Assembly (NCBI GenBank): GCA_007378985.1
Contig: VMHB01000004.1
Coordinates: 1,012-64,474, forward strand
Direction of reading: 5' to 3'
Source: Parcubacteria group bacterium Greene0714_7
GTDB lineage: Bacteria; Patescibacteriota; Minisyncoccia; Phycocordibacterales; Phycocordibacteraceae
DNA: 63,463 bases
The notes beneath the pieces were generated by a model. That model saw only the letters and a program-made list of their open reading frames with translations. It was not told where the DNA came from and did not search any database. Shown in pieces: positions 3,022 to 63,271 of the stretch (its first letter is position 1; every line of letters begins with the position of its first letter). The position numbers were made by a program, and so were the translations under genes.

Positions 3022-3054
3022 CTCCATGTAGGACCTCCGAGGTCCTACATGGAG
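3022..3054. terminator. Hairpin CTCCATGTAGGACC..GGTCCTACATGGAG between convergent genes
   Basis: 14-16 bp perfect stem starting 4 nt after the HTH gene stop. No clear U-tract. Confidence 0.45.
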
Positions 3055-6335: not shown

Positions 6336-7382
6336 TTATTTATTTTTAAAAACAATTTTCTTTTCAGCGCCAAATAATCGTACTTCTGGTGTAATTTGTA
6401 TGCCTGTTTTTTCAAATACCAAACGAGCAACCTCAGATGCAAGTAACACAACATCCTCACTCGTTGAGTTAGGCTCCGCAGTAATCACCAATGCCTGCTT
6501 CTCCCATAAGAACGCTTTTCCAACACGAAGTTTTTTTAAAGAAAGAGCGTGATCAAAAATCCACGCGAGAGGCAACTTCACCCCCCCTTCAGGAAGAGGA
6601 AAAAGTGGCATGAGTGGATACATCTCGGAAAGCTCGCGTGTTTTCTCATCGTTCACTATAGGGTTTAGAAAAAAAGAACCAGCCGTTCCAAACAAGTCGA
6701 GCGGAGGAAATTTTCCTTTCCGAATTTCAATTACCGCCTCGCGCACTTCACGAAGAGAAGGAATGCTCTCTACATTTGCAAAATAATTTTTAAGATCGCG
6801 GTACGAAAGATTAGGACTAGCGTCTGTAGTCAAAGCGAAACTAACACGAACAACAATATAACGATCCACTTCTTTTTTAAAAATACTGGTGCGATATCCA
6901 AACTCACACTCGAGAGATACGAGAGTCTGCATCTTCCCCTGCTTCGTGTCATATACATCAACAGCAATAACTCGTTCTGATAGTGCAGAACCATATGCTC
7001 CAATATTTTGAACAACTCCAGCACCAACGGTACCTGGAATGGATGACAAGTTTTCCAATCCCCAAAAACCTCTCTCAACGCTCTGCTCTACAAGTGAATC
7101 CCATGACACACCTGCTTCAGCAGTACAAAGAATATCTGCGCCATTCACTGTGAACGAAACATCGTGCATAGCGATGTTAAGAAAAACCGCGTCTACTCCC
7201 GAATCAGGGATGAGCATATTGGAACCAGCACCAATAGGAATTAACGGCAACCCTTTTTCTTTTGCAAATTCGACTGCCTGCGAAATTTCTACTTCACTCT
7301 TCACCGTCACTAAAAATCGTGCCGGCCCTCCCGTGTGAAATGTGGTGAGAGTGGACAGTGGGACATTCTCTAAAATTTCCAT
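6336..7382 (-). CDS. murB: UDP-N-acetylenolpyruvoylglucosamine reductase MurB
   Basis: LSTLTTFHTGGPARF, GAGSNML and typical MurB length and C-terminal domain. Confidence 0.9.
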   Translation of the reverse strand: MEILENVPLSTLTTFHTGGPARFLVTVKSEVEISQAVEFAKEKGLPLIPIGAGSNMLIPDSGVDAVFLNIAMHDVSFTVNGADILCTAEAGVSWDSLVEQSVERGFWGLENLSSIPGTVGAGVVQNIGAYGSALSERVIAVDVYDTKQGKMQTLVSLECEFGYRTSIFKKEVDRYIVVRVSFALTTDASPNLSYRDLKNYFANVESIPSLREVREAVIEIRKGKFPPLDLFGTAGSFFLNPIVNDEKTRELSEMYPLMPLFPLPEGGVKLPLAWIFDHALSLKKLRVGKAFLWEKQALVITAEPNSTSEDVVLLASEVARLVFEKTGIQITPEVRLFGAEKKIVFKNK

Positions 7383-8006: not shown

Positions 8007-8054
8007 CCCCTCACTATGTATCACTGTAGTACTACAGTGATACATAGTGAGGGG
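8007..8054. repeat. 48-nt perfect palindrome (24-bp arms, no spacer)
   Basis: CCCCTCACTATGTATCACTGTAGT/ACTACAGTGATACATAGTGAGGGG. Lies ~110 nt downstream of the 8167 stop. Confidence 0.85.
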
Positions 8055-28634: not shown

Positions 28635-28987
28635 ACGTATATATGGAAGTCTGAGATTACATCGTTAGCAATAATATGTACATCTATCTTCTTATTCAGA
28701 ATATCCTATTCAAACACTTTGCGTGAGTCACCATTGATGAGCTTGCACATAATGCTCCCGCGTTGCCCACATCTCCAGGGCCGATGTCTATGTACAGATG
28801 TGCGCCCACGCGCACATCTACGCAAAAATAGCGTCAATGAGGCCCGAGAGCGAGCGTTTGTCTTGCACTAGAGTAATATAAAACAAGTACAGTGCCCGTT
28901 CCCTTACCCCTTTAGTTAACTAAAGGAGTTGAGAGATGTTTATAAAGAAAGGAGTAACACAACGTGGCACCATTTCCTCTTTTTGAC

Positions 28988-29029
28988 ATATAGCTCTCTA
29001 TTAGACGGCCGTCTAATAGAGAGCTATAT
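28988..29029. promoter_or_regulatory. Palindrome A3 (42 nt, perfect)
   Basis: ATATAGCTCTCTATTAGACGG/CCGTCTAATAGAGAGCTATAT. Confidence 0.5.
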
Positions 29030-29074
29030 GTAGCAATGCGGATTATCCAATTTCTCACGAGGTATACTGTGACA

Positions 29075-29371
29075 ATGAAAAGTGTGTCGTGGTGGCAGAA
29101 GGCGCTTTCAGACGGTGCTACGCGTAAATTTCCCAATAGCGGATGGTCGCACACTGACCGTCTTGCTTCTATAGAAGAGCAGCTCGAGGATGTGAAGGCT
29201 TCATTCAAAGTGGAGAGCGGAGAATTACAAAGCGACGACCACGCACACCAAGACCCCAATCACCGCATTGGTGCGCTGATTGCTGACATCTTGATTCTCG
29301 CCGAAGAACGGAACGCCGATATTGAAAGCGAACTTGAAAAAGTACTCGCGTGGTTTGAAGGGCGTATTTAG
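29075..29371 (+). CDS. MazG-like nucleotide pyrophosphohydrolase (small, single domain)
   Basis: IEEQLEDVKA ... IGALIADILILAEERNADIESELEKVLAWFEGR. An alternative start lies at 29036. One of only a few plus-strand genes in the window, isolated among minus-strand neighbours. Confidence 0.5.
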   Translation: MKSVSWWQKALSDGATRKFPNSGWSHTDRLASIEEQLEDVKASFKVESGELQSDDHAHQDPNHRIGALIADILILAEERNADIESELEKVLAWFEGRI

Positions 29372-29445
29372 GTCGCATTCACACACACCGCAAAGCAACG
29401 AGTGCGCCGGACTCCCCTAACAAAAAGCTACACCCACTCGGAACC

Positions 29446-29487
29446 ATATCGCTCTCTAACAGACGGCCGTCTGTTAGAGAGCGATAT
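29446..29487. promoter_or_regulatory. Palindrome A4 (42 nt, perfect)
   Basis: ATATCGCTCTCTAACAGACGG/CCGTCTGTTAGAGAGCGATAT. Lies between convergent genes, so it may act as a terminator. Confidence 0.45.
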
Positions 29488-29541
29488 GTGAAAGAAAACG
29501 GCAACTTTAAAAAACATCAGATACATTTAAAACTCTCTGCC

Positions 29542-37834: not shown

Positions 37835-38744
37835 AGGCTTCGATAATGCGCGGAATAAGACTTTGGAGCGAATGATGTTCGCGAATGTACGAGGGTGAGA
37901 GTGGAAGAGTGCTGATTGCAGGATCGGTGGAATCGACCAGGCAACCACATGCAGCAGCTTCTAAAACTACCTTGTCCAAAGAGCCAGTCTCACTGGTATG
38001 TATTAGTTTGCATGCCATCTGATATTCATAGAGAAGCTGTTCTTGAGTTAACGAACCCAAAAATTTAACCTCGGCGTTAAGCTCCTTCGCATACGCCTTG
38101 AGGCGATCACGCTCAGGTCCATCGCCGACTACACGAAGCGCCAGTCCAGCATCTTTCGCTCTCTGAATAGCGAGATCGTGACGCTTGGTGGGCATAAGAC
38201 GCCCAACAGAAAGAAGGTGATTCCCGCGGGACACCTTCTCGTCTGGGGCGAAAAATTCGATATCAATTCCGTGCCCCATAACCTGCAGTTTTTTAGATGG
38301 CAGCCGAAAACTTTCCTTTGAGGCAGTAAAAATAGTATCTGCAAAAAGCTCAGCGACACGCAGTTTTAAATTTACCGATTTGTGCGTATACCATAAACCT
38401 ACTGGTTTTCGCCAAAGCTTCCAAAAACACCCTGCAAGCAGAACATATTCAGGATTCATATGCACAAGCACAGTGTCATAATTTTTTCGCAATTTCCAAA
38501 TCAGATATAAAAACCGAAATCCATAGCCTATTCGCTTGAGCAAACCACTATCATATATGATAGTGGTTTGCTCTTTACCAATTGAATGAATATGGACGTT
38601 TGAGGGAAGTTTGTGTTTCCCCTCTTTTAAACAAATAACCTCTATGTGCTCTACATGCTTTGCAAATTCTTCAATCCAACGATGAAAAAATCCTAAAATA
38701 GGATCATTCTTGTCAACAATTTGGGTGACAATAAGAAGTTTCAT
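37824..38744 (-). CDS. Glycosyltransferase (GT1/GT4-like)
   Basis: MKLLIVTQIVDKNDPILGFFHRWI, SETGSLDKVVLEAAACG. Confidence 0.65.
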   Translation of the reverse strand: MKLLIVTQIVDKNDPILGFFHRWIEEFAKHVEHIEVICLKEGKHKLPSNVHIHSIGKEQTTIIYDSGLLKRIGYGFRFLYLIWKLRKNYDTVLVHMNPEYVLLAGCFWKLWRKPVGLWYTHKSVNLKLRVAELFADTIFTASKESFRLPSKKLQVMGHGIDIEFFAPDEKVSRGNHLLSVGRLMPTKRHDLAIQRAKDAGLALRVVGDGPERDRLKAYAKELNAEVKFLGSLTQEQLLYEYQMACKLIHTSETGSLDKVVLEAAACGCLVDSTDPAISTLPLSPSYIREHHSLQSLIPRIIEAYVA

Positions 38745-39013: not shown

Positions 39014-39238
39014 TTATTTAGAAAATCTCTTAGCCAAAGTGCGCAAGTCACCAGAATACACACGACCAGCACGAATATCTTCTTCCGCTTCACGGATTTC
39101 AGCAAGCGCTCGCTCTTCCCGAAGAAGCCGGAGCGCGCTTCGCACGACGTGCGCCTTCGATTCGGCGCGCCCTTCTCGCAATTCACTCTTAATGAATTCT
39201 TCCAGATCTTTGTCGATTGGTGTAGTTATGGTGGTCAT
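39014..39238 (-). CDS. ParD/CopG-like ribbon-helix-helix antitoxin
   Basis: 74 aa, RAESKAHVVRSALRLLRE. Lies 11 nt upstream of the toxin. Confidence 0.7.
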   Translation of the reverse strand: MTTITTPIDKDLEEFIKSELREGRAESKAHVVRSALRLLREERALAEIREAEEDIRAGRVYSGDLRTLAKRFSK

Positions 39239-39261
39239 AAAGTACTATAATATAGTACTTT
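39239..39261. promoter_or_regulatory. 23-nt palindrome AAAGTACTATA-A-TATAGTACTTT, candidate TA operator
   Basis: Perfect 11-bp arms abutting the antitoxin ATG. A third half-site, GATAGTAC, follows. Confidence 0.5.
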
Positions 39262-39297
39262 ATGATAGTACGTCAAGATACCTAGCGAGAACAAAAT

Positions 39298-50407: not shown

Positions 50408-51907
50408 CTACGCCGGAAGACCTATACCAGAAATAGGCTCCACATGGAGCATTCGTCGAAGATCATCTTCGGGAATCTCTGAAGTTTGCTTTTCTTCTTT
50501 CTTTGAAGAAGTATTTTCTTTTTTAGTCGCATCATCCGCCTTCGCATCAGGGGTTTTTGTTTTTGGTTTTTCGCCAGAGTCAACTTTCTTTTCTCCTACT
50601 GGTTCTCCTGGTGTTGGCGTAGCTGTACGCTTGTTAAAGATAGAGCGGAATGTATCTGAAAATGACCCCGGCTCACCTCCCTTTCCTTTATCTTTTGGAT
50701 CCTCTTCCTTAGGGGCTTTGAAAAGCGCATCAATTTTTACTCGCTGAGTTGTGTATTTTTCTCGAGAAAAGGTCTGTAAATCTTGGTACGACTCCCCCGT
50801 TCTCTCGGGGCGTGGAAGTGCCATGGCAAAAAACGGACGCGCGCGTACTGAATCAATAGTGAGCGCAACGCACATTTCACCCTCCTTCAATTTTGATAAA
50901 TCCTCTGGCGAAACATACGGATAAAAAATCTTTTCAGCGAGTGAGAAATCTGCAGGATGCGGTGCAAATGCAAGAACCGATCCACATCGTCGAAATGCTT
51001 TTTCATATAACTCTTCATCTTCTTCATTTTGTGGCGTACTTGCGAACGCACATGCAACCTTCCGTTCTGGCAGCATGAGCTCAATATCTTTTTCAGAAAG
51101 GTATTTCAAACAGTCATATAAATAGAGCGCGGTGTTTTCACCAAGTACCCCTCGAGCACGAGCTGCATGGGTAAATATACGCACCAAGGGCGTTATGCGT
51201 GTTGGAAACATTCGAATACGCGACATATCAACGACAACCACAGCCCCAGCGTTATTTTGTGCGAGCGAAAATTTTGATTCTGTCTGCCCAAGAACATTGC
51301 GCACCAAAGTATCTTTCGCAATGTAACGGCCATGCTCAATAATTAACGCAACATCCTCTTCATTCGACTTCATAATCTCTTCAAAACGAATACTCTCTGG
51401 AGTTTGAACACCAAACATTTTGTCGCGCGCTTTTGGATCAGCAACTGCGTTATATAAACAAAGCGCACTTACATCTTGGCGAGCAAGAGAAAATTCAGCA
51501 ATGTATTCAGTAAGGGCACTTGGAGCAATGCGATACATGCTGGCTAGTGCTTCAGAAAAAACACCAACGGCTTTTTCACCAAGTGGACGAAATTCATTAA
51601 TAGGATTCCACGAAAAAGGATGCTCTCCGTCAGAAGGGTCAAGAAATACAAGTCGCTCGCGGGCACTCTCGCTTAAACGCTCTAAAAGCATTGGCACCAA
51701 ATTTCCTGATGCATCCAAAATAACTACACTCATCCCTCGCTCAATATCTTGCAGAGCCATGCCCGCAAAAAGAGTTGCACGGCCACTGCCAGCCTTCCCC
51801 ATGACAGAAAAGTGTTCTAAGCGGTCAGCGTCTTTAATACCAAACGGCACCACACCATCACGAAAAGCTGTTTTCCCGATGTAGGTCACTTTGCCACCCC
51901 AATCCAT
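50408..51907 (-). CDS. VirD4/TraD-like (T4SS coupling-protein-like) P-loop ATPase with Lys/Glu-rich tail
   Basis: Walker A GKAGSGRAT, FLDPSDGEHPFSWNP, Walker B-like VVVVDMS. No N-terminal TM segment. Confidence 0.5.
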   Translation of the reverse strand: MDWGGKVTYIGKTAFRDGVVPFGIKDADRLEHFSVMGKAGSGRATLFAGMALQDIERGMSVVILDASGNLVPMLLERLSESARERLVFLDPSDGEHPFSWNPINEFRPLGEKAVGVFSEALASMYRIAPSALTEYIAEFSLARQDVSALCLYNAVADPKARDKMFGVQTPESIRFEEIMKSNEEDVALIIEHGRYIAKDTLVRNVLGQTESKFSLAQNNAGAVVVVDMSRIRMFPTRITPLVRIFTHAARARGVLGENTALYLYDCLKYLSEKDIELMLPERKVACAFASTPQNEEDEELYEKAFRRCGSVLAFAPHPADFSLAEKIFYPYVSPEDLSKLKEGEMCVALTIDSVRARPFFAMALPRPERTGESYQDLQTFSREKYTTQRVKIDALFKAPKEEDPKDKGKGGEPGSFSDTFRSIFNKRTATPTPGEPVGEKKVDSGEKPKTKTPDAKADDATKKENTSSKKEEKQTSEIPEDDLRRMLHVEPISGIGLPA

Positions 51908-51994
51908 GAAACTAGTGTATAGCGTTTAGCGTTGAGGGTCTAGCGAAGACACAAATATACAAAGAGACTAAGTGGCTAAATGATTAAATAGAGA

Positions 51995-52036
51995 CGATAT
52001 AGTTTAATCTAACGATCGTTAGATTAAACTATATCG
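51995..52036. promoter_or_regulatory. Palindrome B1 (42 nt, perfect)
   Basis: CGATATAGTTTAATCTAACGA/TCGTTAGATTAAACTATATCG. Lies 88 nt upstream of the ATG at 51907. Confidence 0.5.
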
Positions 52037-52070
52037 ATTTTTCTCTCTATCTTGGTGAAACCCTTGAAGA

Positions 52071-52652
52071 TTATTTAGCCGGAGACAAACCAAAACGGCG
52101 GCGGAGAGCTCCGTCATTCTCTATGGTGTCAGCAATGATGTACAGAACTTCCTGTCCCATCTTGAGGTCAGCCTTGATGAGTATAATCAAATCTTCACAA
52201 TCATACGGATACGCCCACACACTATTTTGCAGACGAACAAACCCAAGATTGATGAGTGCCATTCGCATCTTGTCGCGCAAACCTCGTCGCTTTTCTTCGA
52301 TATCAAAAACAAGCACGCGCCACTTACCATCCCATTGTTTTGGTTTTTTAGGAGTCAGCGCACCTTCATGCACCAACATCGCAAATCGCTCCCCTTTCGG
52401 AGTCAAAGACGCATACGAAGTGCCATTTCTTTTTTCAAGAACAATGTATCCTTCACGAATCATTCGTGAAAAAGACTCTTTCACCTGATAGCGTCGTTGA
52501 TTAAGAAATTTCATCTTTCCCAACGCCCCAAGAACATTTGGTGCGACAGATGCCACAGCAAGAGTACCTGTCAGTGCAACAGCATTAATGATGGCACTAT
52601 TAACTTTTGTTCGACGAATCTTCCCCTTCAGTGCCTGTTCAATTTTTCCCAT
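52071..52652 (-). CDS. PaaX-like transcriptional regulator, paralog 2
   Basis: WDGKWRVLVFDIEEKRRGLRDKMRMALINLGFVRLQNSVWAYP. Confidence 0.65.
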   Translation of the reverse strand: MGKIEQALKGKIRRTKVNSAIINAVALTGTLAVASVAPNVLGALGKMKFLNQRRYQVKESFSRMIREGYIVLEKRNGTSYASLTPKGERFAMLVHEGALTPKKPKQWDGKWRVLVFDIEEKRRGLRDKMRMALINLGFVRLQNSVWAYPYDCEDLIILIKADLKMGQEVLYIIADTIENDGALRRRFGLSPAK

Positions 52653-52737
52653 ATGCGATTTAGCGAAATCGTGTCGCGCACCGTCTCTTAAGACGCGACC
52701 CGAAAAAAAATAATGTAGTAAAATTCTTAAATAATAA

Positions 52738-52779
52738 CGATATAGTTTAATCTAACGATCGTTAAATTATACTATATCG
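52738..52779. promoter_or_regulatory. Palindrome B2 (42 nt, 2 mismatches)
   Basis: Lies 86 nt upstream of the regulator ATG at 52652. 39 nt are identical to B3. Confidence 0.5.
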
Positions 52780-52825: not shown

Positions 52826-53251
52826 CTAGTTCTTTTTTCGAAGAGCGGTAGTTTTCCAAACAATAATTCCTAAACTAATCACCGCAAAAACCCCTCCCAT
52901 AAACCACGCAGTATCCTCTCTCACAAATGAATAGAGTGGCATCCACGAGTTACTTGTGGTGGGAGTAATGGTAATAACAAGTATCGAGAAAGGAACCCAC
53001 CACAACGCAAATTTGAACCAGGAACTAAAGGCCTTGGGAAATAGTATGAGAATAAAAGTGATAGGTAACGTAAATAAAGCAAAGATAAATAATGGGACAC
53101 CGACAATTTCTATACTATCGTCAGCACAGCCAATATAATTGGAAAATTGATATGTTCTGATACACAGACCAAAAACTAGCGGATGACTAAAAATGTAGCC
53201 AGCAACAGTAGCCAGCGATGCAAATAAAAATCCAATTACAGAATGTTTCAT
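52826..53251 (-). CDS. Small polytopic membrane protein
   Basis: 141 aa with four hydrophobic segments. Confidence 0.5.
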   Translation of the reverse strand: MKHSVIGFLFASLATVAGYIFSHPLVFGLCIRTYQFSNYIGCADDSIEIVGVPLFIFALFTLPITFILILFPKAFSSWFKFALWWVPFSILVITITPTTSNSWMPLYSFVREDTAWFMGGVFAVISLGIIVWKTTALRKKN

Positions 53252-53805
53252 AAATTAAAAAATTCTTTCAAAAATTTCCATGAACCTCCAAAACCATTGT
53301 ATACCTCTCGAACAAAGCGAGAGAATCCTCTCTGTTGAGAAACAGACGGAGAAGTCGTTGGAATGTGTGGTTTGATTTTCACTTCCTGAAGAAGTTTTTT
53401 CTCAGAACTCTTCAAAGTCGGCTCTACCTTCTTTGTGGGTGTAATTTGAAAATCCTGTACTGGTGTAGCTGTTGCATGAGTTTGATCTAGAGTAGATTCA
53501 GAAAAAATTGCAACAGTACTTGTGCCCGCAACAATACCAACGGGAGTATTCCAAATTGGCCCTCCACCACCAGTTTTCACAGGAGTTTCTATCGTAACTT
53601 CTTCTGGTTCCACAGATTCTTCATACATTATAGTTTCCCCGACTAATGGCTGGAGTGTGATGTCTATTTTCCCATCGCCGTCTTCATCAACTTCAAGTGG
53701 TGAGGCAGTTTCAATACCATCCTCTATACTTAAGGTAACCTTTGTATTTTCAGTCGTTGGTATATTTGCGAGAGTGGTTTGTTGCATCACACTATCTCCT
53801 TCCAT
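53248..53805 (-). CDS. Hypothetical protein (may be a displaced C-terminal part of the upstream lipase-like gene)
   Basis: 185 aa, acidic with DEDGDGKID. Overlaps the upstream ORF by 14 nt. Confidence 0.4.
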   Translation of the reverse strand: MEGDSVMQQTTLANIPTTENTKVTLSIEDGIETASPLEVDEDGDGKIDITLQPLVGETIMYEESVEPEEVTIETPVKTGGGGPIWNTPVGIVAGTSTVAIFSESTLDQTHATATPVQDFQITPTKKVEPTLKSSEKKLLQEVKIKPHIPTTSPSVSQQRGFSRFVREVYNGFGGSWKFLKEFFNL

Positions 53806-56219
53806 TTAGAACAACTTGGTACTGAGGGCCTTGCGGAGCACTGATGTATTGCACATCCCCAAACTCGCCGTACTCAACATCAAGGATGTCTTGATCAAAT
53901 GAGCCATCTTCGTTTTGCCCCACATGGTTCCCAAATGCGTCATACAGTTCGAGCGTTAGCGGGGAATGAAGGAAGAAGCGAAGTTTTTTCTTACTGCTGG
54001 GAATATTAGGAGACTCATTAGATACCGTAACAGGAATAATAGATACATCTTGTAGAAGATTATAAATAAAATTTTCCAAATCCTGAATCTCCAAAAGATT
54101 ACCGTGATCATTTTTTATTGGAGGACTAAGGTCAATCCAATATCTTTTCACATTCTCAGTGCTCGTGCTCATCATAAGAGCACTCGGAACGGGCACGACT
54201 CCATCGCCGTCTTCAACAATCAGTGGACGATATGCCCTTGGATTTAGAGCAGTGAAGGCACTCACCTGTGGTGCATCGTAAAATTCAATACCCCGCCACA
54301 GTATCTTTCCCCCACCCAGCAATTTGATACACGGTAATATTTTCTGGTGGCACCCATACATCAAGATTGTCGTGAAGAGACTTAGCATAGTCAACAAGCG
54401 TTGAATTTAAAACACTTGCTTTGCCAATTTGACTTGAAAGCGGTTTCTCCCTTCCGCCGTCTCGCGCGAGCAAAAAATCATCGAGCTCTGTTTTGTTGTC
54501 AATTATCAAGCCATACGCAGTTCGTTCTTTTTCAAAAGCTCTTTCACCATCAAAAATAACAACAGGGTGATTAATGTCTTTCGTGTCATCGAAGTACTGC
54601 TGTGACGGAAGCAAGTGGTATCCCATTGGAGAATTTTCGGCAAACTCACGCGCAGTTGAAGCCTTCACTACGAATGGAAAAAAGTCCGGTATCCCCTCTC
54701 TGTAGCCGTACAGAAGCGAACCAATACTTTGTGGTGCCCCGCTTTGCGGAACACCCACCAAAATAATCTTATCTACTAACTTTTGAGCCTCTGCGTCTCC
54801 AAGCTGTTCTAGTAATGCTTTCGTTACTAATCCACCATTTGAATGCGCCACAATGGTCACTTTTCCTGTTTGCGATTGTGATGCAAGTGCTCGGAGCGTC
54901 TGAGTAATATAGGGCGTTGAGGTGGCCGTGCCATAAAAAATCCTTCCATCAACTTCGGCACCATTTGCAAGAATATCGTCCAAAGAAAGGCGCCAGTCGT
55001 ATGCAACAGACTGCCAGTCTTCTATATCTCCACTACTCTCCAGAGCATCCATATCAGCAATGAAAGATTTGTAATAATCCTTTCCTCCTGCTGAATCAAG
55101 AATGCTCCCCTCTTTCACATATACATTTCCGATGCTCTTGCCGTTTGAATCGAGTGACATGCCTCGTACATCATCGTTTCCTTCAAACAAGTCCGGTTCC
55201 CATAACTTATTTTCCGAGCCATCAGTCTCCACATAGAGACGACTCCCTTTAATGCCAGGCAAAAACAGGACACTCGAACAGCACTTCTGAAACTCAGTTG
55301 GAGAAAATGGCGTGGTTTGAATAATGGAGGCATCTCCATCAATGGTGCCGTAGAAAGAAACATATGTTGAATCGTCAGGTATATCTCCTGCACACCCAAC
55401 ACAAGAGAGTGCAACATCGTTTTCGTCGTCCCACAACACAAAGTGGGTCGACGAGGTCATACGAAATGAAAAATAGCGTATGTATGGCGTGAAAGTGGTA
55501 TCGGGCGACAGTGATAAATAGTCGGGTGCATTTGTCACACACGAATCATCAGCTACCAAGACTGAGGTACGAAAAGCTCTCCCATCGTTATAGGGAGTCT
55601 TCAATCTCAAATGAACACGAAGTAGCCCGTCTACATACTCTGCACTTTCTGATGAGTCAAAATAATATCCACTTGCGCTCCCTGCACTGCAAGGAGTGGT
55701 TTTTTCTGTTGAGTTTTGAAATGAAGGAGGCTCTGCATCTTTTTGTATGTTCAGAGTTTTTGAGGTAAAAACACTCCCACCATTATCTATAGTTCCTTCA
55801 AAAGCGATTCTCGTATAGAGAGGTACTGCGGGTATGTCAAAGCCAGTCACAATTGCTTCATTTTGATCATCCCATACATCAAAGTGCTCGCCAGAAATAA
55901 AACGAATACTCCAATTCGTCACTCCAGTAGGCAGACTTATAGAAACAAACGAGCTCGTGGAAGTTAGCGGATTACATTCATCGTCGAGATATGACCAACG
56001 AAGGCTAAAAGAACGCCCATCTGCATACTCAGGTAAATTATGAAAACTATAAATCAAATAGTCACCGTCTGAATACGCAATATTTTCGTACGAATCAAAG
56101 AAATACCCGCTGGCGGAAAGAGAAGACAGTCCACATGGTGCAGTGTCAGCAAATACTGGTGTAGGGAAAAAGATAGAAACGAAAAATAGAACGACAATTG
56201 TCGCCGCAGTTCTCTTCAC
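53792..56219 (-). pseudogene. Large secreted alpha/beta-hydrolase (lipase/PGAP1-LCAT-like) split by a 1-nt frameshift at 54291-54294
   Basis: Signal peptide and two ~130-aa N-terminal repeats. VTIVAHSNGG nucleophile elbow in ORF 54285..56219. DGDGVVP in ORF 53792..54397. Reading ..GKDTVAG|IEFYDAPQ joins the two. Confidence 0.6.
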
Positions 56220-56283: not shown

Positions 56284-56325
56284 CGATATAGTTTAATCTA
56301 ACGATCGTTAAATTATACTATACAA
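56284..56325. promoter_or_regulatory. Palindrome B3 (copy of B2, outer 3' end degenerate)
   Basis: Lies 65 nt upstream of the ATG at 56219. Confidence 0.5.
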
Positions 56326-62866: not shown

Positions 62867-63075
62867 AAAAATTTACTAACTTCGATGCGATTGTAACATC
62901 TATGACTTCTTGCGTTGCTATACGCAACACAGCGAAGCGAATTCGAGCTTTTTTATATTTATACTCGAGCGCTTCGCTTCGTGAAAATCTCGTCTTGGTG
63001 ATTTAGAAAATCATCCGCGACGTGAATTGAAGCTTTTTATAAAGCTTCGCTTTCTAAAAACATCAATTCAGCTGC

Positions 63076-63162
63076 GGGACCTGGACTCGCCTCTCGCACT
63101 GCTGTGCTCGAAACCTTCGCTCCCTCTCGATCGCTGCGGCCCGCGGTTCGAGTCCAGGTCCC
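63076..63162. repeat. 14-bp perfect inverted repeat GGGACCTGGACTCG/CGAGTCCAGGTCCC with a 59-nt spacer
   Basis: Read directly from the sequence. Lies in non-coding context. Confidence 0.8.
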
Positions 63163-63271
63163 TCACCTCGTCATTACATTTCTCGGCTGTGTCTCTTGAA
63201 CAAAATCCGAACCTTTTTCCAACAAAATCCCGATGTGGAATGAATCGTTCCGCCACTGCCTCGCTTCACTC

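Follow-up and report, generated by a model that had tools for sequence, protein, structure and literature searches.

A PaaX-type winged-helix/Cas2-like protein of a Parcubacteria bacterium and its candidate palindromic sites

Regulator proteins and the closest described systems

PaaX of Escherichia coli represses its own promoter by steric hindrance of RNA polymerase at the operator TGATTC-N27-GAATCA, which spans 39 bp (PMC9493321). In another described arrangement, tyrosine transposases associated with repetitive extragenic palindromic (REP) sequences (RAYTs) are flanked by REP doublets forming hairpins (REPINs) with group-specific pairing, and A/T runs are found at the doublets (PMC3337134). 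The present work concerns a 63,463-nucleotide stretch of contig VMHB01000004.1 (below, the window) of Parcubacteria group bacterium Greene0714_7, in which two paralogous PaaX-type proteins, regulators 1 and 2, lie beside long palindromes designated set A and set B, respectively. We focus on the three set B palindromes (B1, B2 and B3) as candidate sites of regulator 2. To our knowledge, almost nothing is known about gene regulation in bacteria of the Candidate Phyla Radiation (CPR).

Both regulators matched PaaX_M (PF20803) with E-values of about 5e-20 (6e-20 for regulator 2) and scores of 71.5 and 72 bits (cut-off, 24), and they share 36% identity over 137 aa. A third PaaX_M paralogue is not encoded in the window. 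E. coli PaaX (8A39) was the only PDB sequence match of regulator 2 at E < 0.001, with residues 49-149 aligned by phmmer to residues 50-147 of 8A39. The AlphaFold (AF2) model of regulator 2 (predicted local distance difference test score, pLDDT, 71) places a winged helix (helix-helix-wing) at residues 32-82 and a ferredoxin-like beta-alpha-beta-beta-alpha-beta domain at residues 110-173. A Foldseek search with this model ranked 8A39 first (E = 3.8e-6, 180 aligned columns), ahead of further PaaX-like entries and of small proteins with a winged helix.

As in PaaX of E. coli and Pseudomonas, the winged helix at the N-terminus of each regulator leads into a central Cas2-like domain. Unlike PaaX (316 aa), the regulators are only about 190 aa long and lack the C-terminal domain: PaaX_C, which binds the inducer phenylacetyl-CoA, gave no match, and both proteins end at 185-193 aa, directly after the Cas2-like domain. 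The Pfam PaaX N-terminal family was not matched by either regulator at E ≤ 0.01, both failed the PaaX equivalog TIGR02277 (48.6 and 28.8 bits against a cut-off of 264.55), and no paa genes are located nearby. Regulator 2 is a PaaX homologue, namely a short (truncated) PaaX-type protein composed of a winged helix and a Cas2-like dimerisation domain.

The DNA elements can be compared in the same way. The PaaX operator is an inverted repeat contacted at its outer ends (PMC9493321); here the symmetric span is 36-42 bp, and binding is predicted. The occlusion of RNA polymerase in PaaX autorepression (PMC9493321) has a possible counterpart in the -10-like hexamer and the start codon found in 16 of 21 upstream copies in the protein family. 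In contrast to the PaaX operator, the whole 36-42 bp is palindromic around a conserved central core, a second copy lies past the regulator stop codon, and about 19 copies per related genome occupy all intergenic classes.

The regulators share with Cas2 the ferredoxin-like domain and the motifs FDI...RR...LQ.SVW. They exceed the cut-off of the NCBIfam cas2 model (TIGR01573; 29.8 and 26.6 bits against 24.5) and stay below that of Pfam CRISPR_Cas2 (PF09827; 21 and 20.7 against 23.8). Unlike Cas2, they are fused to a winged helix, and the window contains no CRISPR array (no CRISPR-like tandem or direct repeats); PADLOC reported only the Cas2 similarity there. The Asp of the FDI motif at the end of strand 1 is invariant across the family, whereas E. 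coli PaaX has LLLSEG at this place of the alignment. We take this residue to occupy the position of the catalytic Asp of Cas2. There are hundreds of homologues of about 190 aa, all from CPR/Parcubacteria sources, in which they are labelled "PaaX" or, often, "Cas2". No publication on this winged-helix/Cas2-like PaaX-type family of Parcubacteria was found.

Set B palindromes and their linkage to the regulator gene

The 42-nt consensus CGATATAGTTTAATCTAACGA/TCGTTAGATTAAACTATATCG was found in the window without mismatch at B1 and with two mismatches at B2, while none was expected by chance in 100 dinucleotide-preserving shuffles. The 21-nt left half-site is repeated exactly at 56284-56304 as part of B3. 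Each of the three palindromes lies between co-directional minus-strand genes (Table 1). B1 is located 34 nt past the stop codon of the regulator 2 gene and 88 nt from the ATG (51907) of the ATPase gene, B2 is 86 nt from the ATG (52652) of the regulator 2 gene, and B3 is 65 nt from the GTG (56219) of the lipase-like gene. The three palindromes, the mismatch counts of B1 and B2 and the three distances to start codons, all given earlier in the sequence-only reading, were confirmed.

The right-arm variant TCGTTAAATTATACTATA is common to B2 and B3 and reads TATAAT on the gene strand; in both sites, it forms the gene-distal arm. A promoter scan placed ATTACA-16-TATAAT on the minus strand over B3. 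It should be noted that this consensus scan found fewer sites overall than in shuffled sequence and that B3 was the only B site overlapped. A terminator scan marked B1 on both strands. Rfam at the gathering threshold gave no match in the whole window, so no known RNA family covers the palindromes.

Table 1. Positions of the palindromes, regulator genes and neighbouring genes in the window.
Feature	Position	Strand	Description
Set A copy	12524..12565	.	at the regulator 1 stop codon; also overlaps the ATG of ORF 10819-12525
Regulator 1	12565..13122	-	185 aa; paralogue of regulator 2; PF20803 at 4e-20
Set A copy, degenerate	13120..13163	.	15/21 arm positions paired; overlaps the regulator 1 ATG
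Set A copy A1	28986..29031	.	perfect 46-bp palindrome; identical in orthologous locus L121
Set A copy A2	29445..29488	.	perfect 44-bp palindrome; convergent intergenic gap
P-loop ATPase of HerA/FtsK/VirD4 kind	50408..51907	-	weak matches only; downstream of B1
B1	51995..52036	.	perfect 42-bp palindrome; after-stop copy of regulator 2 (family-typical)
Regulator 2	52071..52652	-	193 aa; winged helix-turn-helix, then Cas2-like (PaaX_M) domain; without PaaX C-terminal domain
B2	52738..52779	.	42-bp palindrome, 2 mismatches; upstream copy of regulator 2 (family-typical)
Lipase-like (LCAT / alpha-beta hydrolase) gene	54285..56219	-	downstream of B3; first of three overlapping open reading frames (ORFs)
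B3	56284..56325	.	B-type palindrome, 5 mismatches, all in right arm; upstream of lipase-like gene

When species-representative genomes were searched for the inner 24 nt of the B site, eight loci were obtained, all in three Paceibacterota/Patescibacteria assemblies (JAGOSG01, JBBAAE01 and SCTS01), which served as the related genomes for comparison. Loci L005, L006 and L008 are syntenic with the 47-57 kb region of the window at 77-97% nucleotide identity, and the regulator 2 orthologues of the three genomes are 96-97% identical. The B1 sequence is identical in all four genomes, while its flank towards the ATPase gene diverges: the DNA between B1 and the ATPase start is unalignable in SCTS01 and carries an insertion of about 170 nt in two genomes. 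B1 keeps its distance to the regulator stop codon (33 nt in SCTS01, 34 nt in the other three genomes), whereas it is 88, about 250 or about 93-129 nt away from the ATPase start. B2, too, is kept in the four genomes; its upstream flank varies, and so does its distance to the ATG (85, 48 or 40 nt). At B3, the palindrome and its leader of 64-68 nt to the start codon are kept in all four, and the upstream flank is not. The comparison confirmed that B1-B3 are real elements conserved at orthologous positions while their flanks diverge.

Two length differences were observed around these sites. The insertion of about 170 nt is located at about 2780-2950 in L005 and on the reverse strand in L006, is absent at about 51908-51930 of the window, and contains a doubtful ORF of 86 aa (L005 2745-3005). 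Between B2 and the regulator ATG, a segment of about 45 nt (52653-52700) contains a GC-rich hairpin (GGGTCGCG...CGCGAC). It is present in the window and in JBBAAE01 and missing in JAGOSG01 and SCTS01, which leaves a leader of about 40-48 nt there instead of 85 nt.

To place the locus in its protein family, we considered 80 loci encoding relatives (39-60% identity) out of at least 596 such loci in species-representative genomes; several of these genomes encode two or three paralogues. The density of long palindromes was 1.53 per kb up to 200 nt from the gene ends and 0.062 per kb elsewhere, i.e., a 25-fold enrichment, and those far from the gene ends were mostly ordinary GC-stem terminators. 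Most of the 80 loci have a copy upstream of the gene and/or a copy a few tens of nucleotides past its stop codon. Within a locus, the two copies have almost the same sequence, which differs from locus to locus. The common design, about 42 bp in total, has a centre of the form C-N-N/N-N-G (CGATCG, CGGTCG, CGGCCG or CTATAG). Counted from the dyad over 72 family sites, positions 2-5 and 11-18 obey two-fold symmetry strictly, and the central base pair, positions 6-10 and those past position 18 do so only loosely. This two-box symmetry, which includes would-be hairpin-loop bases, is more readily explained by a symmetric protein bound to duplex DNA than by a plain stem.

In 21 loci, the end of the upstream palindrome coincides with the start codon, at an identical offset in 15 of them. 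Of these 21, 16 have TAnnnT at positions -12 to -7 (counted from the first base of that codon), a hexamer with a background frequency of 0.016. Its position argues for a leaderless promoter buried in the palindrome, which is the classic geometry of autorepression. Among the after-stop copies counted at 17/21 or better, 16 have a convergent and 13 a co-directional downstream gene, and some lie in short gaps between two 3' ends. Because after-stop copies are equally frequent with convergent downstream genes, B1 is better described as located just past the regulator stop codon than as upstream of the ATPase gene.

Half-site distances correlated with distances in the winged-helix region (Mantel r = 0.43, 0 of 2000 permutations) and less with those in the Cas2-like region (r = 0.27). 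Locus L011 has the same gene order as the window (small protein, regulator, ATPase), with a regulator 54% identical and an ATPase orthologue at 59% identity. Its sites stand in the same places as B1 and B2 and combine a similar outer box (TAGTATAAT) with a changed core (GCTATAGC). The proposal that the paralogous regulators have co-diverged with their own palindromes was supported by the enrichment at gene ends, the locus-private copies, the Mantel correlation and L011. A pairing in which each paralogous regulator would have its own palindrome of the same design is strongly supported by these comparisons.

In more distant genomes, loci L178 and L200 (Vogelbacteria, PCSX01) and L163 and L191 (JBBTXB01) match the B site over its inner 22 nt (TAATCTAACGNNCGTTAGATTA) and differ in the outer boxes; the site of L178 adjoins a regulator only 36% identical to regulator 2. 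These four loci suggest that the inner core and the outer box may evolve separately.

Genome-wide copies of the B element and the explanations weighed

Based on a degenerate inner core (TAAYYTAACGRYCGTTARRTTA), the B element was counted in the three related genomes, where 57 sites were found, 19 per genome. The majority form is CTGTATAGTATAATTTAACG[AG][TC]CGTTAAATTATACTATACAG, i.e., CTGTATAGTATAATTTAACGATCGTTAAATTATACTATACAG, and the B1 form of the window represents a minority subtype. All sites except one lie between predicted ORFs (56/57), and the exception falls in a probably spurious ORF of 224 aa. When ORFs were required to have at least 80 aa, 28 sites were tandem, 10 divergent and 11 convergent, compared with 65, 26 and 34 among site-free gaps of at least 80 nt. 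Hence, the B sites show no orientation preference relative to background gaps. The element is not tied to promoters genome-wide.

The neighbouring genes encode GluRS, PheS, PolA, Pol III delta, GlmS, RNase R, ParB, YchF, Fmt and PepQ, as well as AdoHcy hydrolase, Sua5, RecG, L9 and an S41 peptidase. RecG, L9 and the other neighbours known from the relatives were sought in the window, and none is present. The sites group into 20 clusters, 13 of which are common to all three genomes and 5 more to two. One site conserved in the three genomes lies between the divergent genes for RecG and a peptidoglycan-binding protein. In asymmetric sites (such as B2, B3 and their orthologues), the TATAAT arm faces the downstream gene. 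Terminator-like A-run/T-run flanks accompany about 40% of the B sites.

A second paralogue serving the "CTG...TATAAT" subtype of the B element was considered and rejected, as no such gene occurs near any B-type site in the three genomes. An exact majority B-type palindrome was also found on a 4.2-kb contig labelled Simkania sp. (L167, JAGXTH010000098.1), which is probably a mis-binned CPR contig.

We lean, with moderate confidence, towards the following explanation. The B palindromes would be cognate duplex sites of regulator 2, with B2 and B1 serving autoregulation and B3 acting as an operator, and the approximately 19 copies per genome would be transcription punctuation and not the switch of a single regulon. 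The binding, stoichiometry, repression, looping and termination that we infer may proceed as follows. In a regulator 2 dimer, each of the two winged helices would sit on one outer box. These boxes, at 11-18 bp from the dyad, are separated by about three helical turns, as the repeats of the E. coli PaaX operator are, and the conserved central C-G-N/N-C-G core lies between them. B2 upstream and B1 after the stop codon would bracket the regulator gene and provide its autoregulation, possibly strengthened by looping between B1 and B2 or by a roadblock at the 3' end. Overlapping a TATAAT that faces the downstream gene, B3 could work as a classical operator. The genome-wide copies would be protein-bound or hairpin-forming punctuation (operator, roadblock, terminator or insulator) independent of orientation. 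Such a role is probable because the element occurs in every intergenic class, often between an A-run and a T-run.

Several results weigh against this explanation. The promoter scan placed no convincing -35/-10 pair at B1 or B2. The copies are alike at about 40 of 42 positions, which is far more than is typical of regulon sites, and no functional theme was found among the flanking genes. Convergent genes, between which a promoter is not expected, flank after-stop copies as well as 11-14 of the 57 B-type sites. The flanks are polar: an A-run on the left or a T-run on the right was counted 47 times (T-run right at 22 sites, A-run left at 25; n = 57) against 16 for the reverse. The arms co-vary beyond the consensus (0 of 5000 shuffles in each of the three genomes). 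Orthologous sites show nine mirrored double changes, four of them fully compensated, versus about two expected from 39 single-arm changes. This excess, about four times the expectation, suggests selection for base pairing or a copy-paste ancestry.

The alternative that survives best is unlikely in our estimation, though not far-fetched. In it, the palindromes are repeated extragenic elements comparable to REP sequences, and the winged-helix/Cas2-like protein is no transcription factor; it would be a factor for their processing, maintenance or dispersal, possibly an active nuclease on hairpin or cruciform DNA. As in REP/REPIN-RAYT systems, the gene is present in single copy with its own palindromic repeat on either side, further copies are dispersed between genes, and each paralogue within one genome has a separate repeat class. 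Protein and repeat also co-diverge rapidly. The near identity of the copies, the co-variation of their arms, the retained FDI Asp and the regulator 2 score above the NCBIfam cas2 cut-off are in its favour as well. So are the common A-run/T-run flanks, which resemble those of REP doublets and suggest co-option for termination (PMC3337134). On the other hand, the regulators gave only PaaX_M, Cas2 and winged-helix matches and none to a HUH/Y1 (IS200-like) tyrosine transposase, and about 19 copies per genome stand against hundreds in REP systems, a copy number about ten-fold lower. The B copies are positionally stable between species, with 18 of 20 clusters common to at least two of the three genomes, which argues that the element is not currently mobile. 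They are perfect palindromes without the GTAG/CGTC tag, and no doublet (REPIN) structure was seen. Finally, symmetry is kept at would-be loop bases and lax in the middle of the stem, and the upstream copies contain promoter elements and start codons. In an alignment of L003 with the window for presence/absence polymorphism of B sites, the region was unalignable and has no bearing on mobility.

A related idea, to which we give a rather low probability, is that the protein and its private 42-bp palindromes form an undescribed partnership analogous to REP/RAYT. A Cas2-derived domain with its catalytic-site Asp retained would recognise, cut or maintain hairpin-forming palindromes that have been domesticated as transcription punctuation across the genome, with several orthogonal pairs per genome evolving together rapidly. 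Activity of the Cas2-like domain on the palindromes, if borne out, would make this a repeat-protein partnership of a new kind and connect Cas2 in a new way with functions outside CRISPR.

The sequence-only reading had proposed two insulated regulons over surface and secretion genes. Spelled out, regulator 2 would repress a small set of such genes (the ATPase, an LTD/PKD protein and the lipase) through promoter operators B1-B3, and regulator 1 would act likewise through set A. Every B site in the window does precede a co-directional gene, the leader below B3 is conserved and a promoter-like site overlaps B3, and the order of regulator and ATPase is kept in L011. But the related genomes carry 19 sites each, placed beside housekeeping genes and without orientation preference; B1 follows the regulator stop codon and not the ATPase start; and after-stop copies persist where the downstream gene is convergent. 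For set B, the proposal finds no support on these grounds, and as a whole we consider it quite improbable.

Least of all do we expect protein-independent RNA hairpins, i.e., long AT-rich intrinsic terminators or mRNA-stabilising stems that have a sequence in common by chance and stand beside the regulator gene only by accident: the flank polarity, the marking of B1 by the terminator scan, the co-varying arms with their compensated changes and a weak trend for G.U to outnumber A.C among sense-strand mismatches (9:5, 11:6 and 16:7) would suit them, but they give no reason for an identity of 40/42 nt over about 19 loci or for a sequence that switches with the adjacent protein over 80 loci, sites also lie between divergent genes such as those for RecG and the peptidoglycan-binding protein, where no transcript should end, the T-run is sense-downstream in only 11 of 28 tandem contexts, and these genomes have ordinary GC-stem terminators as well.

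The protein family is large, often with two or three paralogues per genome, and is now mislabelled Cas2 or PaaX. Every member has a private palindrome of 36-42 bp that is easy to recognise, which provides testable protein-DNA pairs, a natural series of specificity changes and a marker of transcription-unit boundaries in uncultivated organisms. In addition, an attractive but wrong inference is corrected: the B element is genome-wide and is no surface/secretion switch.

Set A, neighbouring genes and other features

Sets A and B had been described as having the same architecture. The agreement extends to the centre (ACG-NN-CGT; the set A core is ACGGCCGT) and to the overall span, but not to the register of the outer box, since the TATAG box of set A is displaced outwards by 2 nt relative to that of set B. 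A set A pattern scan of species-representative genome contigs gave 71 loci, nearly all of them chance matches in unrelated phyla. The only informative matches were L121, which holds the A1 orthologue, and L112, which holds a regulator 1 orthologue (80% identity). A small ORF on the plus strand (about 29076-29371) lies between A1 and A2. Approximately 180 nt containing A2 (29360-29541) are absent from the orthologous JBBAAE01 locus L121, where A1 is perfectly kept. Further perfect palindromes, unrelated to both sets, are located at 8007-8054, 38538-38573, 3022-3054 and 39235-39265; one of these is 48 bp long (CCCCTCACTATGTATCACTGTAGT/ACTACAGTGATACATAGTGAGGGG).

Instead of the cas1 gene and CRISPR array that accompany cas2, the neighbourhood of regulator 2 comprises the ATPase, small proteins without a family match and the lipase-like gene. 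The label of a VirD4/TraD-like ATPase is backed by sub-threshold matches only (DUF87/HerA, 1e-3; TrwB, 8e-3; CedD, 3e-5), and no match above threshold was obtained for it. The lipase-like gene is the first of three overlapping ORFs (the others at 53792-54397 and 53248-53805; total span 53248-56219), which correspond to one ORF of 1004-1009 aa in the relatives (L005 4474-7503, L006 1905-4919). This split indicates frameshifts in the window, arising from pseudogenisation or assembly error.

A GC-rich non-coding stretch at about 62990-63190 contains a tRNA T-arm-like sequence (GGTTCGAGTCC) and was matched by neither ARAGORN nor Rfam (gathering threshold). It is highly conserved in JBBAAE010000016.1 (L003, about 6840-6970) and may be an unannotated structured RNA.

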